Assembly: GCA_964545715.1 (NCBI GenBank)
Contig: CAZJHX010000003.1
Coordinates: 81,644-145,643, forward strand
DNA from: an uncultured Myxococcales bacterium
Lineage (GTDB): Bacteria > Myxococcota_A > UBA9042 > GCA-2863065
Length of the DNA: 64,000 nt
Direction of reading: 5' to 3'
Part shown: positions 26,681 to 36,471 of the stretch, one piece after another
How the letters are laid out: each line of letters starts with the position of its first letter
Position numbering within the stretch: position 1 is the first letter of the stretch
Translations under genes and position numbers: made by a program
Notes under the pieces: model-generated
The model's input: the letters and a program-made list of their open reading frames with translations, nothing else
Database searches by the model: none
What the model was told of the DNA's origin: nothing

Positions 26681-27766
26681 TTACCCGCGCTTGGTCGGAC
26701 CGAAGACCGACAGCCCGGTGCGTCCTTTAATTTCTTTTGTTTCAGGTAGTTGTAGTCGGAACTGGCTGCGGTTGTAGAAGTTCATGGGCTGGATGAAGAG
26801 CTGCAGCACACTGCGAATGAACTTGGGCACCTCGCCCAGCACGTCCTCGCGGTACAGCAGTTTGCCGGTCTTGACCTCCAGCGTGATGCCGTCCGCCGTG
26901 ACCCGATATCGGGTCGGCACTTTATGGCCTTTATTGGTCCGAGTCTTGAGCACGGTCGCATGTGCGTTGAGAGAGTGGGCTACGACTTTGCCGCCCTTCG
27001 TGACGACGAGCCAGCCGAAACGCTCCTCAGCCCAGTCCTTCGGTGTCGCAATCTCCATAAAGGTGACGCGATGGCCCTTGGCGCGTCCGGTGAAGCGCAG
27101 CATGAAATGCGCAAGCTTCTGGGGCGAGACCGTCGTGGCTGCATGCTCACCCGAGCACGTGCCTTTGAAGGTCTGCCACTCCCCATTGTGCGTGCGCTCG
27201 CGACCGGTCAGGCGCCCGCCGGTCGGCAGCGTGTGAAGCTTCAGCACGCCGGCCCCGGGAAAGCTCACCTTGCCGTTGCCGGGGCGCCAGGACTTCGATC
27301 GCGGCTTACACACGAACTCCAGCTCGTAGCCCCAGGCCGTCATGTAGCCCTCGATACCCTTGCTGGTCTTGCGCAGCGTGTTTTTTGCAATGCGGATGTC
27401 GAGACCCGACGTCTTCGCCGCCCAGTCGCCTTTCGGGGCGCGCTTGGGCCACCGATAGAACTCGGGCTTGCCCGTCGGCTCCGCCAGCGGCGGCGCATAT
27501 CGCATGATGTCGATCGTGGCGTGTCCGTCGCCCGGGCCCAGGTTGGTCAGAACGTAGCTGGCCTGCATCCACGCGCCGCCCTTGCGCTCCAGCGTGATCA
27601 GCCAACGCTCCAGGTAGGCTTCTTTGCCCTTGAACCGCTCGTGGTGGCTGCCGAGGTCCGCCTTTCCGACAGTCGACGATGCTTTGGTAAAGCCTGTGAC
27701 GCGGTCGGCGTGTGCCGGTGACGGGAGAGAGAAAACGATGATGATCAACAAGGACGCTAAGCGCAT
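26681..27766 (-). CDS. Secreted hypothetical protein (beta-rich, possibly lipocalin/AttH-like)
   Basis: Signal peptide MRLASLLIIIVFSLPSPAHA; 361 aa; the fold guess is weak. Confidence 0.65.
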   Translation of the reverse strand: MRLASLLIIIVFSLPSPAHADRVTGFTKASSTVGKADLGSHHERFKGKEAYLERWLITLERKGGAWMQASYVLTNLGPGDGHATIDIMRYAPPLAEPTGKPEFYRWPKRAPKGDWAAKTSGLDIRIAKNTLRKTSKGIEGYMTAWGYELEFVCKPRSKSWRPGNGKVSFPGAGVLKLHTLPTGGRLTGRERTHNGEWQTFKGTCSGEHAATTVSPQKLAHFMLRFTGRAKGHRVTFMEIATPKDWAEERFGWLVVTKGGKVVAHSLNAHATVLKTRTNKGHKVPTRYRVTADGITLEVKTGKLLYREDVLGEVPKFIRSVLQLFIQPMNFYNRSQFRLQLPETKEIKGRTGLSVFGPTKRG

Positions 27767-31326: not shown

Positions 31327-32259
31327 ATGGGTGACAGCTACCGCACATTCGTGGTGGTCAACCCCCGCTCCTCGGGCGGGTCGACCAACAAACGCTGGCA
31401 GGCGATCTCCGCCAGCCTCTCGCGGGCGTTGGGGACCTGGGATCACGCGTTTACCACCGCCCAGGGCGACGCCACCCGGCTGACGCGCACGGCGCTGCGG
31501 GACGGCTACGAGATGATCGTGGCGGTCGGCGGCGACGGCACGATTCATGAGGTCGTCAACGGGTTCTTCGACGGGGAAGAGCCTGTTTCGGCGCAGCCAC
31601 CCGTGCTGGGTCTGCTGCCGTCGGGCACCGGGGGGGACACCCGCAAGACCTGGGGTCTCTCTCGCGATCCGGACGAGGCCTGCGCGCGGCTTGGCGGGCT
31701 GGACACCAAACCGACGGACGCCGGGCGTATTCGGTGGACGGAGCCCGACGGGTCGCCGGCCTTTCGCTACTTCGCCAACATCGCGTCGTTCGGGATGAGC
31801 GCGCTGGTCAGCAAGAACGTCAATGAGTCCAGCAAGGTGCTCGGCGGCCGGCTGTCGTTTCTGAAGTCGTCGTTGGCTGCGCTGCTGCGATATAAGCGCA
31901 CGCCGGTTCGCCTTGTCACCGATGGGGACGACACGCGGGAGGTGACGCTGACAGTCGGCGCGGTCTGCATCGGCAAGTACTTTGGCGGGGGCATGATGGT
32001 CGGTCCCGACGCCGACCCGTCTGACGGGCAGTTCGACATGGTGACCATCGCGCTGACCAAGCTGGACATGGCGCGGTTCAACAGCATCTACAAAGGCAAG
32101 CATCTGTCCAACCCCAAGGTTGACTGCTGGCGTGGCGCCGTTGTCGAGGCCGCACCCGTCGGCGATGTCGACGTCTTCATCGAGGCTGACGGTGAGGTTT
32201 TTGGGAAGCTGCCGGCGCGCTTCGAGATCCTTCCCGGCGCCTTCCGCATGAAGGTCTGA
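31327..32259 (+). CDS. Diacylglycerol/lipid kinase family protein (YegS/DagK-like)
   Basis: VVNPRSSGG, VGGDGTIHEVVNG, LPSGTGGD, YFGGGM, EADGE. Confidence 0.9.
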   Translation: MGDSYRTFVVVNPRSSGGSTNKRWQAISASLSRALGTWDHAFTTAQGDATRLTRTALRDGYEMIVAVGGDGTIHEVVNGFFDGEEPVSAQPPVLGLLPSGTGGDTRKTWGLSRDPDEACARLGGLDTKPTDAGRIRWTEPDGSPAFRYFANIASFGMSALVSKNVNESSKVLGGRLSFLKSSLAALLRYKRTPVRLVTDGDDTREVTLTVGAVCIGKYFGGGMMVGPDADPSDGQFDMVTIALTKLDMARFNSIYKGKHLSNPKVDCWRGAVVEAAPVGDVDVFIEADGEVFGKLPARFEILPGAFRMKV

Positions 32260-32262
32260 CGC

Positions 32263-34983
32263 GTGGGGAAGCGAAAGTCATCCACCACGGCCAAAGAGCC
32301 TAAATCGAAGCCGAAGCGATCGACGAAGAAGCCGGCTAAGAAGAAGGCGTCGAAGCCGGTCGTTCCCGGCACGTGGACCAGTCTGCTGCTGGCCTGCGTG
32401 TCCGGCACGATGGTCTTCATGTCGTACCCCAACTACGACCTCTACCCGCTGCAGTGGTTCGCGTTTGTGCCGCTGCTGTTCGTCATTGAGAAGCGCGGTC
32501 CGGGCAAGTCGTTCCTCTTTGGTCTGCTGGCGGGCACGGTCACCAACTGGGGCGGCTTCTATTGGATCACCGGAATGCTCATGGATTTCGGGCATTTCTC
32601 ACTGGCGCTGGCGATCCCGCTGTGCACGGTGATGTGCGTCTATCAGGGCCTGGTCTGCGGGCTGTGGGCCGCCCTGACGCGCTGGCTTGTCAATCGAACG
32701 GACGCTCCCATCTTGCTGGTCTCGCCCGTCGTGTGGGTGGTGGTCGAGTACTGTGTGCCGTTCATCTTCCCCTGGTACCTGGCCAACGGGCAGTATCTCT
32801 TCTATCCGGCGATTCAAGTTGTCGAGCTGACCGGCGTGCTGGGGCTCAGCTTCATCATCATTCTGGTCAACACCGGGCTCTTTCTCGGGCTCCGGGCCGC
32901 CCTTCGTCGCCGCTGGCAGCAGGCGCTGCGTCCGACTGCGTTCGTGCTGGCCGTCTTTGCGGCCAACGTGCTGTACGGGCTGGTTCGCATGCATCAGGTA
33001 GACGCTGCCATGGCCGAGGCCCCGTCCCTGAAGATCGGCGCCGGCGAGGCGGACGTGGGCATCTTTGAGAAAGAGGCCAAGGGGCTGAGGAATCGCACCC
33101 AGATGCTGGGCCTGTTGCGCGGCAACATCATGAAGCACCACCTGTTGGCGGCCGACCTGGCGAAAGACAAAGGCGTGGACCTGATAGTGGAGCCGGAGTC
33201 CAGCTTCATCCCAGTGCCGGGCCACAAGGTGCAGTTCAAGCGCAACGACCTGTTTGCTGTGGTCGCAGGCGCCGGTCGAAACGCGTGGGAGCTGCGGGAC
33301 AAGCGCTGGACGGGACCGCGGCGTGCTGCGCGCGAGGCCCCGGCGGTTCACTCGATGTGGGCGGCGCGGGAGGACCACGTCTACGGCGTGGGGCCGGGCG
33401 GCATCATCTTGCGGCACAACGGCGAGGAGTGGACGCGCGAGCGCAACGACGATCGGGCAAACCTGCACGGGGTGTGGGCCGGGGAGTACTCGCCGATCGT
33501 GCGGCGCGTGGACGGCGCGCCCGTGGTCGCGGTCGCGGTCGGGGAAAAGGGCACGGCGCTGCTGAGTACGCAGAGTGGTGAGTGGGTTCCGACGCGCACC
33601 GGCACCAACGCGACGCTACGGGCGGCCACGGGCACGGGCGCCAAGCAGATCTACGCGGTGGGCGACGAGGGCACGGTGCTTCGGTTCGACGGCCAGAAGT
33701 GGTCAGCGGAGCTGTCCGGGGTGACCGTCGCCCTGCGCGGCGTCTGGGCGGCCGAGAACGGCCGGGTCGTGGCGGTCGGCGACGAGGGTACGATCGCGAC
33801 GCGCAAGGGGGCGCGCTGGAGCGCGGTGACGCTGCCGGGCAAGCCGCGCCTCAACGGCGTGATCGGCAACCGGCGCGGCATGTTTGCTGTTGGGGAGCGC
33901 GGGCATGTCTGGCGTCTGACCAACGGCGAGTGGCGGCGCGTGGCGTCGCGCACAAACGCGGACCTGCATGCGGTCGCGGTCGACGGGCGCGGCAACTACT
34001 ATGCGGTCGGCTCCGGCGCCACAATGCTCGTGCGCAAGGCGGGGGCCAACGACTGGACGGCGTCCGATGTGCTGCGCGACGCCGGTGACCTGTTTGCAGT
34101 GGCCGGCGTGCCGTTCACGGGCGCGCACGCTTTCGCGCGGGACGCTCGGTTTATCTATCGGTCACAGGCCCCGCTGCCGCCGCTGAAGGGATGGACGACG
34201 CTGGACGCGGTGGCCAACGTCGGCGCCGTCATGGCCAACGACCAGGACACGGCCTCCGAGGACTGGAATACGCCCGTGCGGGGCTTCGACAAGCCGATCT
34301 TGCTGGGGCTCTTGACGTACGAGCCCAAGGACCCGGCGATCAGCGCGCTGCGCAGCCGGGAGGACCGGCGCACGTACAACTCGGCCATGCTGATAGACAG
34401 CGATGGAAAGGTGCTGGGGCGCTACGACAAGAACTACCTGCTGATTTTCGGGGAGTTCATCCCGTTCGGCGACGTGTTCCCGCAGTTCTACGAGTGGCTG
34501 CCCGAGGCCAGTCACTTCTATCCGGGCGAGACGGTGGAGACCTTCTCCTTCAAGGGACACCAGATCGGCGTGCTGATCTGCTACGAGGACATCATCCCGC
34601 GCTTTACTCGCAGCCTCGCGGGCAAAGACCCCAACGTGCTCATCAACGTCACGAACGACGCCTGGTTCGGTAAAACCAGCGAGCCGTATCTGCACCTGGC
34701 GCTCTCGATCTTCCGCGCCGTCGAGAATCGGCTGTGGCTCATCCGCAGCACGAACACGGGCGTGACCGTCTTTGTGGACGCCGTTGGACGTATCGTGAGC
34801 GAGACCGGGCTCGAGGACCCCGAGGTGCTGGTCTCCGATGTGCCCATGATGCGCAGCAGCACGCTGTATCGCAGCTATGGCGAGCTGTTCGCCTACCTGT
34901 GCCTGATCGCGTTTGCCTTGCTGGTTATCGGGGCGCTTGCTCGACGTCGCCGACAGCGGCGCGCCAAAAGAGAAGCGAGCTAG
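32263..34983 (+). CDS. lnt: Apolipoprotein N-acyltransferase with a ~300-aa repeat (probable beta-propeller) insertion
   Basis: N-terminal transmembrane helices; nitrilase triad motifs PES, YDKNYLLIFGE, ICYED; NVTNDAWFG, RAVENR, RSTNTG. Confidence 0.88.
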   Translation: MGKRKSSTTAKEPKSKPKRSTKKPAKKKASKPVVPGTWTSLLLACVSGTMVFMSYPNYDLYPLQWFAFVPLLFVIEKRGPGKSFLFGLLAGTVTNWGGFYWITGMLMDFGHFSLALAIPLCTVMCVYQGLVCGLWAALTRWLVNRTDAPILLVSPVVWVVVEYCVPFIFPWYLANGQYLFYPAIQVVELTGVLGLSFIIILVNTGLFLGLRAALRRRWQQALRPTAFVLAVFAANVLYGLVRMHQVDAAMAEAPSLKIGAGEADVGIFEKEAKGLRNRTQMLGLLRGNIMKHHLLAADLAKDKGVDLIVEPESSFIPVPGHKVQFKRNDLFAVVAGAGRNAWELRDKRWTGPRRAAREAPAVHSMWAAREDHVYGVGPGGIILRHNGEEWTRERNDDRANLHGVWAGEYSPIVRRVDGAPVVAVAVGEKGTALLSTQSGEWVPTRTGTNATLRAATGTGAKQIYAVGDEGTVLRFDGQKWSAELSGVTVALRGVWAAENGRVVAVGDEGTIATRKGARWSAVTLPGKPRLNGVIGNRRGMFAVGERGHVWRLTNGEWRRVASRTNADLHAVAVDGRGNYYAVGSGATMLVRKAGANDWTASDVLRDAGDLFAVAGVPFTGAHAFARDARFIYRSQAPLPPLKGWTTLDAVANVGAVMANDQDTASEDWNTPVRGFDKPILLGLLTYEPKDPAISALRSREDRRTYNSAMLIDSDGKVLGRYDKNYLLIFGEFIPFGDVFPQFYEWLPEASHFYPGETVETFSFKGHQIGVLICYEDIIPRFTRSLAGKDPNVLINVTNDAWFGKTSEPYLHLALSIFRAVENRLWLIRSTNTGVTVFVDAVGRIVSETGLEDPEVLVSDVPMMRSSTLYRSYGELFAYLCLIAFALLVIGALARRRRQRRAKREAS

Positions 34984-35604: not shown

Positions 35605-36471
35605 GTGGTCGAGAAGCAGTCCGTCCCGCTTGTGAGTTCGCTTACGGTGGTTCTTCCGCAGCGCTATCGCGCAAGCGTTGTGGATGTCGTGCCGTATGGG
35701 CACGGATCCATCTTGATTCTGCTGAAGGACTTTGTCGTGGTCGCGGACAAGCCACCGGAGCCGATCTGGCGCCTGTTCCGGTACGAGGCGCCGGCGACGA
35801 CCGCGGTCGAGGTATGCACATTCTCCCAGGCGGGCAAGTCCGGCGTCTTTCCGGTCCACATTGCCTGCGTGGGCACCGACGTCTACCTGCTGTTTCACAA
35901 CGAGCTGCTGCGCGTCGACGTGGACGAGAAGGTGGTTCACGGCGTTTGCCGACTGCACCTGCCCCAGAGCGAGGATGAGCAGGCCGGGAGCCTGGTCCGA
36001 GCATTGGCGATGCGCGCCGGCACAGCCTGCCTGACGGTCGAGCTGGGCGAAGAAAACCTGACGCTGCACTGGATCCCGCTGGACGACCGGCCCGTTGTCG
36101 GCTGCCGCTTCCGCGGGGTGCGGGGCGAGCGCATCCTGTTCGGGCCCAACGACGACCTGTACGCGTTGGATATGCTGGACCTGACCATCTACCGCAACGG
36201 CGAGTGGATCGGGCACCGCGACCTGACCGACTGCTTTGATGAGTGGTATCGCAATCCCCTGGAGCTGTTGAGCATCGCGCCGGACGGCCGGGTCTTCGTG
36301 GCCAACGGTACGCGGATGGTCGCGGTCGCACCGGACCTGAGCCGCATCGTGGGCACCTACGCGCTGCCCACGGTGCCGACAGCCATAAAGTATCGCGGCG
36401 ACTCGGAGGCGCTTCTGGCGACTGTCGATCCGGTGTCATGCACGCTTTTGATCCAGACGGTAAAGGTGTAG
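35605..36471 (+). CDS. Hypothetical protein
   Basis: 288-aa ORF filling the gap between yqgE and the C45 gene; no motif recognised. Confidence 0.6.
   Translation: MVEKQSVPLVSSLTVVLPQRYRASVVDVVPYGHGSILILLKDFVVVADKPPEPIWRLFRYEAPATTAVEVCTFSQAGKSGVFPVHIACVGTDVYLLFHNELLRVDVDEKVVHGVCRLHLPQSEDEQAGSLVRALAMRAGTACLTVELGEENLTLHWIPLDDRPVVGCRFRGVRGERILFGPNDDLYALDMLDLTIYRNGEWIGHRDLTDCFDEWYRNPLELLSIAPDGRVFVANGTRMVAVAPDLSRIVGTYALPTVPTAIKYRGDSEALLATVDPVSCTLLIQTVKV

Follow-up and report, generated by a model that had tools for sequence, protein, structure and literature searches.

The apolipoprotein N-acyltransferase (Lnt) encoded in a 64,000-nt stretch of DNA from an uncultured Myxococcales bacterium (contig CAZJHX010000003.1, positions 81,644 to 145,643; this whole stretch is referred to as the window) carries a predicted seven-bladed, Ycf48-like beta-propeller within its catalytic nitrilase domain. 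The protein of 906 aa is read from a single open reading frame (ORF) without interruption at 32263-34983 (+). A first-pass annotation of the letters alone had already noted this length and a series of repeats between the motifs EPESSF and YDKNYLLIFGE, and both motifs were found where it placed them (aa 310, nt 33190 and aa 721, nt 34423; ICYE follows at aa 772). We regard the structural and evolutionary part of our interpretation as very probable, i.e. a real insert that would fold into a closed propeller, a catalytic triad and most essential residues left intact, and inheritance within one lineage. To the entire explanation including function, in which a resident Lnt would use its propeller as a putative docking platform beside the substrate entrance, we assign a probability of roughly 40%.

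The limits of the insert were taken from an alignment of 22 long homologues and 11 shorter Lnts (alignment A1), where it appears as a clean indel with ~300 residues in the long forms between ‘PESSFIP’ (aa ~318) and ‘ARDARFIYRSQ.PLP’ (aa ~625). The closest short relatives (P0028, P0030-33), sharing 42-62% identity in the common domains, run straight across this site. The insert of ~307 residues starts right behind the strand with the catalytic Glu, and its earlier delimitation at 33240-34140 (aa 326-626) agrees well with the alignment-derived aa 319-625 (nt 33217-34137). A comparison of the A1 profile with PDB gave the same gap, as Escherichia coli Lnt aligned through ‘WPESAI’ and then again from ‘RDKGSSLVTGIV’ (RDKGSS in E. 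coli), placing ~18 E. coli residues opposite ~355 in the insert-bearing Lnt. The distance from the catalytic Glu to the catalytic Lys is thus 411 aa in the window and 382-448 aa across all long forms, compared with 91-119 aa in short Myxococcota Lnts and 67-68 aa in canonical Lnt (68 in E. coli).

The repeat character of the insert is far beyond chance, as its BLOSUM62 autocorrelation is highest when the sequence is shifted by 39 residues (z = 6.3 relative to 200 shuffles) and there are seven evenly spaced ‘AVGxxG’ cores. The six to seven repeats of ~40 aa initially described resolve into precisely seven blades with a 39-aa period, the previously quoted repeat heads at aa 362, 401, 452, 491, 530, and 568 being joined by a seventh, LFAVAG, at aa 610. 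AlphaFold2 (AF2) modelled the entire Lnt from alignment A1 with a mean predicted local distance difference test score (pLDDT) of 90.3 and a predicted template modelling score (pTM) of 0.88, disorder being restricted to the first 34 residues, and the insert appeared as an all-beta domain of 28 strands in seven four-stranded blades. Modelled alone from an insert-only alignment it adopted the same 28 strands and seven blades (pLDDT 89.7, pTM 0.89) and can therefore be considered an autonomous domain, so that the suggestion of a folded propeller was borne out by structure prediction both in context and in isolation. At the N-terminal end, blade 1 comprises strands B, C, and D only (aa 330-354), and its strand A comes from the C-terminal ‘LFAVAG’ (aa 610-615). 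In the models, closure is thus a classical velcro that joins both ends of the insert, as required for a domain inserted into a loop. Conservation follows fold-determining positions (the strand-A Leu, the AVG..G turn, and the strand-D Trp), with Gly, Leu, Ala, Val, and Trp as the most conserved residues.

The flanks of the propeller are those of a genuine Lnt. Pfam LNT_N matches aa 47-204 (E = 6.9e-30) and CN_hydrolase aa 699-862 (E = 2.1e-25), the latter with profile positions 85-248 only, i.e. the second two-thirds, and the NCBIfam equivalog TIGR00546 scores 233.6 bits (cutoff 132.9) in two stretches separated by the insert. All Pfam and NCBIfam Lnt models match the flanks only and leave ~350 central residues without any Lnt model match. 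A sequence search of PDB returned only Lnt structures and, more weakly, other nitrilases, and Foldseek aligned both flanks of the full model to E. coli and Pseudomonas aeruginosa Lnt structures (E ~1e-19, TM-target 0.72-0.80). The triad Glu312/Lys723/Cys773 is present as first described, and all 33 sequences of A1 have E312, K723, C773, and E731, while nearly all have Y774 and E775. Equivalents of E343, Y388, and E389 of E. coli are kept (E731 in FGE, Y774, and E775); W237 falls opposite Ala272 in the profile alignment, which is uncertain in this loop, and an aromatic residue (F268; W in homologues) lies four residues upstream. The protein is predicted to be the resident, catalytically competent Lnt. 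Its N-terminal tail is Lys-rich and predicted to be disordered (MGKRKSSTTAKEPKSKPKRSTKKPAKKKASKP, 32263-32367), and would be cytoplasmic according to Lnt topology; an Arg-rich tail is encoded at the C-terminal end (34951-34980). Similar basic tails occur in most homologues, and the C-terminal tail of P0026 extends to ~100 aa rich in Lys, Ala, Pro, and Ser.

The order of elements in the Lnt nitrilase domain is beta1-alpha1-beta2(Glu)-alpha2. Nine ‘arms’, loops lying roughly parallel to the membrane, ring the catalytic triad; Arm 5, the loop into alpha2, is located in the upper half at the front end, Arms 1 and 3 flank the substrate portal, and the folded part of the lipoprotein was argued to remain external to the funnel, held by a flexible tether (Wiktor et al. 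2017, PMC5500888). We read Arm 5 as the beta2-alpha2 loop, although the legend in PMC5500888 gives ‘beta1 and alpha2’, because beta1-alpha1 is Arm 7. Alignment and published topology therefore suggest that the propeller is inserted in Arm 5, at the front of the nitrilase domain on its periplasmic side.

Profile and fold comparisons both point to Ycf48 as the closest natural relative of the insert. The insert profile reached Ycf48/HCF136 chains in PDB at E = 2.4e-13, and Foldseek matched Ycf48 with E = 8e-11 to 4e-9 and a template modelling (TM) score of ~0.6 for both the full and the insert-only model. The seven-bladed designer propeller WRAP-T was superimposed with TM 0.73/0.82 (TM-target 0.82) and a root-mean-square deviation of 3.0 Å over 305 columns, and the insert-only model gave the same ranking as the full model, followed by tectonin, Kelch, and WD40 propellers. 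The Pfam family PSII_BNR was reached at E <= 0.01 by 4/22 members of the insert family (best E = 5.5e-7), the Lnt of the window itself scoring E = 0.6 and 9.7 bits (cutoff 27). On these sequence and model comparisons the insert is a distant member of the Ycf48-like propeller group, and of the original label ‘YCF48/BNR-like’ the first half was upheld by AF2, Foldseek, and profile matches. The second half is loose because the insert lacks a canonical Asp-box; a regular expression found no S-x-D-x-G-x-x-W, only three relaxed G-x-x-W turns, and BNR/Asp-box membership was rejected. Orthology to Ycf48 was likewise rejected. At the membrane surface, Ycf48 binds those segments of a membrane protein that are exposed, and it works through six highly conserved Arg that bind the lumenal surface of D1 (PMC10403576). 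This patch is absent from the insert, where no column exceeds 68% Arg.

The family to which the blade repeat belongs is abundant: at E <= 1e-3 it numbers 19,580 representative proteins, and at 1e-30 still 814. Many of the large repeat proteins sampled (P0057-P0203) contain Big_2, fn3, or PA14 domains, and giants reach 6,713 aa (P0057, with 43 matched stretches). Ten of them inspected for domains carried Big_2, fn3, PA14, or Ig-like domains, and their propeller part mostly had no Pfam match. We read these partner domains as marks of extracytoplasmic proteins, which would fit the periplasmic location of the Lnt nitrilase domain. The large proteins share the ~39-aa blade motif (L-x-x-V ... AVG-x-x-G ... 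W) with the insert at 30-42% identity over multi-blade stretches; in contrast to it, they are stand-alone, often giant multi-propeller proteins without Lnt parts, and Pfam models the repeat poorly. A donor or partner copy of the propeller was found neither in the window nor in the 6-kb flanks of 12 related loci.

Compared with E. coli and P. aeruginosa Lnt (PDB 5N6H, 5N6M, 5VRG, 8B0K, and others; TIGR00546), the insert-bearing protein shares the eight-helix membrane domain, the periplasmic alpha-beta-beta-alpha nitrilase-like domain, and the triad. It differs by ~337 extra residues between the Glu strand and alpha2 (the 307-aa propeller plus a ~45-aa linker), by its Lys-rich N-terminal tail, and by having no evident equivalent of W237. 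Ycf48/HCF136 (PDB 2XBG, 5OJ5, 8AM5 chain S; PSII_BNR PF14870) is likewise a seven-bladed propeller of ~300 aa on the non-cytoplasmic face of a membrane, but a free-standing lumenal (lipo)protein of oxygenic phototrophs that acts in photosystem II (PSII) assembly, whereas the insert forms an internal part of Lnt, and its host lineage within Myxococcota is not known as phototrophic. Lnt-Ppm1 of actinobacteria, in which Lnt is joined to a polyprenol-phosphate mannose synthase, is another Lnt with an acquired extra domain (e.g. P0047, which carries glycosyltransferase Pfam domains). However, there Lnt and a cytoplasmic enzyme domain are joined end to end, unlike the insert, a non-catalytic repeat fold placed within the periplasmic catalytic domain.

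The insert is also authentic at the DNA level. Overall GC content climbs from ~0.62 to ~0.73 inside it, and GC at third codon positions (GC3) is even at 0.85-0.90 in the membrane domain, the insert, the nitrilase parts, and eight neighbouring genes. The rise is located at codon positions 1+2 (0.64 vs ~0.50) and, because GC3 is uniform, reflects a composition rich in Gly, Ala, Arg, and Val. We further compared the gene with Logan assemblies of four marine-metagenome runs (X1-X4). A 42.9-kb contig from X1 spans the entire gene with zero differences, a 1,277-nt contig from X2 runs through both insert junctions, and two contigs from X3 each cover one of them. The junctions, for which the first-pass annotation had named an assembly chimera as a refuting outcome, are thus no assembly artefact, and an assembly chimera or foreign origin was ruled out by GC3, these contigs, and junctions common to homologues. 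A 1,193-nt contig from X4 matches only 32756-32785 (30 nt) joined to 34574-34598 (25 nt). It implies a skip of 1,788 nt (596 codons) from the FPWY region to the ICYE region, its ends differ from the insert boundaries, and the rest is unlike the window; this contig is probably a short-match artefact or stems from a divergent relative.

Approximately 30 protein clusters of 830-940 aa display the insert architecture at the same site, with identities down to 33%, and those with a name belong to Myxococcota or Myxococcales. Our search of 185,579 species-representative genomes, of which the best 80 loci (Lnts down to ~32% identity, from many phyla) were considered, recovered the long Glu-Lys spacing in 12 metagenome-assembled genomes (MAGs; L002-L011, L021, L039) assigned to Myxococcota, Myxococcales, or ‘Deltaproteobacteria’. 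Each of them has a full-length match to the insert profile within the lnt ORF (E 1e-32 to 1e-108). Cultured Sorangium and MAGs labelled Polyangiaceae and Nannocystaceae possess ordinary Lnts. The insert is hence rare, as the domain-architecture check proposed at the outset confirmed, and it appears to be restricted to uncultured Myxococcota sampled in metagenomes of marine and other environments. The glcD/E/F-like and yegS genes upstream of lnt are syntenic in insert-bearing and insert-free Myxococcota loci, and the insert must therefore have arisen inside the resident lnt gene. Judged from sequence, a single lineage of uncultured Myxococcota has passed this architecture on by inheritance. Bootstrap support for monophyly of the long forms in a tree of Lnt core columns was poor (7/100 with all sequences, 45/100 without four basal ones), so that one ancient gain followed by losses and repeated gains are not separable.

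The receiving loop varies in other Lnts as well. Short Myxococcota Lnts have ~40 extra residues in the beta2-alpha2 loop with a conserved S..PLP motif; this linker (S634, P637, L638, and P639 nearly invariant) is present in insert-free Myxococcota Lnts as in the long forms and absent in E. coli Lnt. A third class of ~660-730 aa with a Glu-to-Lys distance of 187-190 aa (L013 5800-7986 +, L014 5839-7965 +, and P0034) carries a ~100-aa segment (‘LFLELDSLFVP.FRD...’) in the same loop. These are not decayed propellers, as the hidden Markov model of the insert gave E > 0.1 even with filters off and the segment reads differently. An unrelated segment at the same place identifies the beta2-alpha2 loop as an insertion hot-spot.

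What might a propeller do in this position? Lnt chemistry would remain the standard ping-pong acyl transfer, and the propeller would serve as a non-catalytic periplasmic platform for binding proteins or peptides on the front face of the nitrilase domain, by the substrate entrance. Apolipoproteins might be held there by their folded part or by their unfolded tether; alternatively, the platform might hold a pathway partner, e.g. Lol components. The selection of lipoprotein substrates or scaffolding of partners suggested in the first-pass annotation would be in keeping with such a site. We favour binding rather than catalysis because only fold-determining residues of the insert are conserved. The working analogy would be Ycf48, a membrane-surface propeller gripping exposed segments of a membrane-anchored protein. 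A more specific version, i.e. a substrate-selective or pathway-coupled Lnt whose propeller captures apolipoproteins, their N-terminal tethers, or LolCDE/LolA at the funnel, seems unlikely to us. If true, it would constitute a built-in hand-off or sorting step of lipoprotein maturation with no counterpart in model bacteria.

Several observations weigh against a docking platform. Where the propeller would lie with respect to the portal (Arms 1/3) and the membrane is inferred from published topology, and retention of every residue essential in E. coli is not demonstrable, with Ala272 as the apparent equivalent of W237. Moreover, the insert diverges approximately twice as fast as the Lnt core in the sequences compared, with identities of 47% vs 80% to P0002 and 20% vs 50% to P0035. 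The insert alignment contains no conserved polar or charged patch on the propeller surface, and such a fast-evolving surface without a patch argues against one universally conserved partner. In the neighbour-joining tree of Lnt core columns, insert-free P0028 and P0030-34 are nested among the long forms; Lnt function in close relatives thus does not depend on the insert, and whatever the propeller does is probably accessory. On the other hand, the length, blade number, and position of the insert were kept despite this divergence.

The same observations might be explained by a tolerated passenger, a common extracytoplasmic propeller that settled in a permissive loop and has a purely structural, stabilising, or steric role without a specific ligand. 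The insertion hot-spot, the restriction of conservation to fold-determining residues, and nested short forms, which are compatible with cost-free loss, would all fit, and donors are plentiful given the abundance of the module family. However, the seven-blade fold, the Glu-to-Lys distance, and the exact position are retained at a core identity of ~46-50% and in 12 species-level genomes, which implies sustained purifying selection on a 300-aa domain. In addition, the charged residues K326, R327, E370, and D371 near the junction are semi-conserved. We therefore consider a mere passenger somewhat unlikely.

A docking platform on the resident enzyme also has to be weighed against a specialised paralogue, which would use its propeller to recruit a dedicated target and leave housekeeping acylation to another Lnt. 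Some bacteria, e.g. Streptomyces, indeed encode two Lnt homologues, and the incompleteness of MAGs could hide a second lnt. Against this, the glcDEF-yegS-lnt neighbourhood is as in insert-free Myxococcota and indicates orthology to the resident gene, and no second, short Lnt from any of the 12 insert-bearing MAGs, incomplete as these are, was present among the best 80 loci, which hints that the long form may be their sole Lnt. A paralogue is accordingly quite improbable.

Quite improbable too, in our opinion, is a lectin-like module comparable to tectonin that binds a glycan or envelope polymer and tethers or positions Lnt at peptidoglycan, exopolysaccharide, or a glycolipid. PA14 and Ig-like domains are typical of carbohydrate-binding surface proteins and co-occur with the repeat relatives, and Foldseek matched the insert to tectonin 2 with methylated sugars (E = 6.5e-8, TM-target 0.65). 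These chains have 222-226 residues, however, compared with ~300 here, fewer columns were aligned, and they rank below Ycf48, a protein binder that is the better match in both profile and fold. Pfam Tectonin (PF19193) was matched weakly by the Lnt of the window (E = 2e-4, aa 497-596) and in 1/22 members of the insert family, and membership was rejected at 21.3 bits, under the cutoff of 30. Beyond the structural Trp, no conserved aromatic or polar positions suited to sugar binding recur over the blades. Finally, an assembly chimera or frame-fused pseudogene, which the GC climb might suggest, has a negligible chance in view of uniform GC3, the Logan contigs of X1-X3, an identical protein recorded on two contigs, both junctions being common to ~30 homologues and to 12 MAGs from unrelated studies, and a full-length model that is confident throughout.

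Both Lnt and Ycf48-like propellers are well known individually, and their combination within one domain, by the catalytic Glu, is visible in automated annotations; JGI labels some of the clusters ‘apolipoprotein N-acyltransferase/photosystem II stability/assembly factor-like’. In literature on Lnt together with propeller, Ycf48, insertion, fusion, or Myxococcota, this architecture was not described, although most subscription journals lie outside the coverage, so that its absence is no proof. Lnt is an enzyme that model Gram-negative bacteria cannot do without, and its potential as an antibiotic target is under discussion. To our knowledge, the solved Lnt structures are all compact and two-domain, and contact with the bulky part of the substrate and the hand-off to Lol have not been established. 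An Lnt with a propeller on a funnel arm offers a ready-made natural experiment on such contacts: should the propeller turn out to bind substrates or Lol components, it would show where they can occur, and if it is dispensable, Arm 5 would be a permissive site for tags, sensors, or fusion partners in Lnt. It is, moreover, a clean case of whole-domain insertion by a catalytic residue with no disruption of the nitrilase fold, and it draws attention to a very large and poorly modelled family of Ycf48-like propellers in non-photosynthetic bacteria.

Table 1. Coordinates of lnt, its predicted domains and blades, and the adjacent upstream gene in the window (aa, residues of Lnt; CDS, coding sequence).
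Feature	Position (nt)	Strand	Basis
YegS/diacylglycerol-kinase-like lipid kinase gene, ends 4 nt before lnt	31327..32259	+	Pfam DAGK_cat, YegS_C
lnt CDS, 906 aa, GTG start, stop 34981-34983	32263..34983	+	ORF list, TIGR00546, Pfam LNT_N and CN_hydrolase, Foldseek
Lys-rich N-terminal tail, aa 1-35, predicted disordered	32263..32367	+	pLDDT <50 at residues 1-34; basic tails in homologues
Membrane domain, transmembrane helices 1-7, aa 36-252	32368..33018	+	LNT_N, AF2 helices, hydrophobic segments
Nitrilase domain, first part, beta1-alpha1-beta2, aa 253-318; Glu312 at nt 33196-33198	33019..33216	+	E312 invariant; aligns to E. coli WPESAI
Inserted seven-bladed Ycf48-like beta-propeller, aa 319-625	33217..34137	+	Clean indel, 39-aa periodicity, AF2, Foldseek, profile match to Ycf48
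Entry linker (conserved FKR-D) and blade 1 strands B, C, D, aa 319-358	33217..33336	+	DSSP strands 330-337, 340-345, 348-354; K326 86%, W349 86%
Blade 2, aa 359-397, semi-conserved ‘ARED’ A-B loop	33337..33453	+	Model/conservation; E370 86%, D371 77%
Blade 3, aa 398-448, 12-aa additional loop between strands A/B	33454..33606	+	Model/conservation
Blade 4, aa 449-487	33607..33723	+	Model; L452, G467, G470 invariant or nearly so
Blade 5, aa 488-526	33724..33840	+	Model; G506, G509, W519 invariant
Blade 6, aa 527-564	33841..33954	+	Model; G544, G547 invariant
Blade 7, aa 565-609	33955..34089	+	Model/conservation
Velcro strand ‘LFAVAG’ (aa 610-615, blade 1 strand A) and exit segment to aa 625	34090..34137	+	DSSP strand 610-615, strand-A motif
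Clade-specific linker, S..PLP motif and short helices, aa 626-672	34138..34278	+	Alignment A1; P637, L638, P639 95-100% conserved
Nitrilase domain, remainder, aa 673-866; Lys723 (nt 34429-34431), Glu731, Cys773 (nt 34579-34581), Tyr774, Glu775	34279..34860	+	CN_hydrolase aa 699-862, invariant columns, E. coli Lnt alignment
Transmembrane helix 8 and Arg-rich C-terminal tail, aa 867-906	34861..34980	+	Model helix 875-905; hydrophobic segment 870-896

The yegS-like gene directly upstream is probably co-transcribed with lnt. Their adjacency, often behind glcD/E/F-like genes, recurs in L003, L006, L007, L013, L014, L016, L025, L028, L039, L051, L061, and L072, irrespective of the insert in lnt, and may reflect a functional link of the lipid kinase to Lnt, which consumes phospholipid. 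The surroundings of lnt gave nothing informative with regard to RNA genes, tRNAs, promoters, and terminators. Downstream of algH, a 288-aa ORF (35605-36471, +) matches no Pfam family, and in L002 a counterpart with 34% identity occupies the equivalent place. A 361-aa protein (26681-27766, -) encoded upstream of the glcDEF-like genes shows a weak match to the Svf1-like C-terminal lipocalin-like domain (E = 2.3e-10), and its counterpart in L003 is 36% identical.

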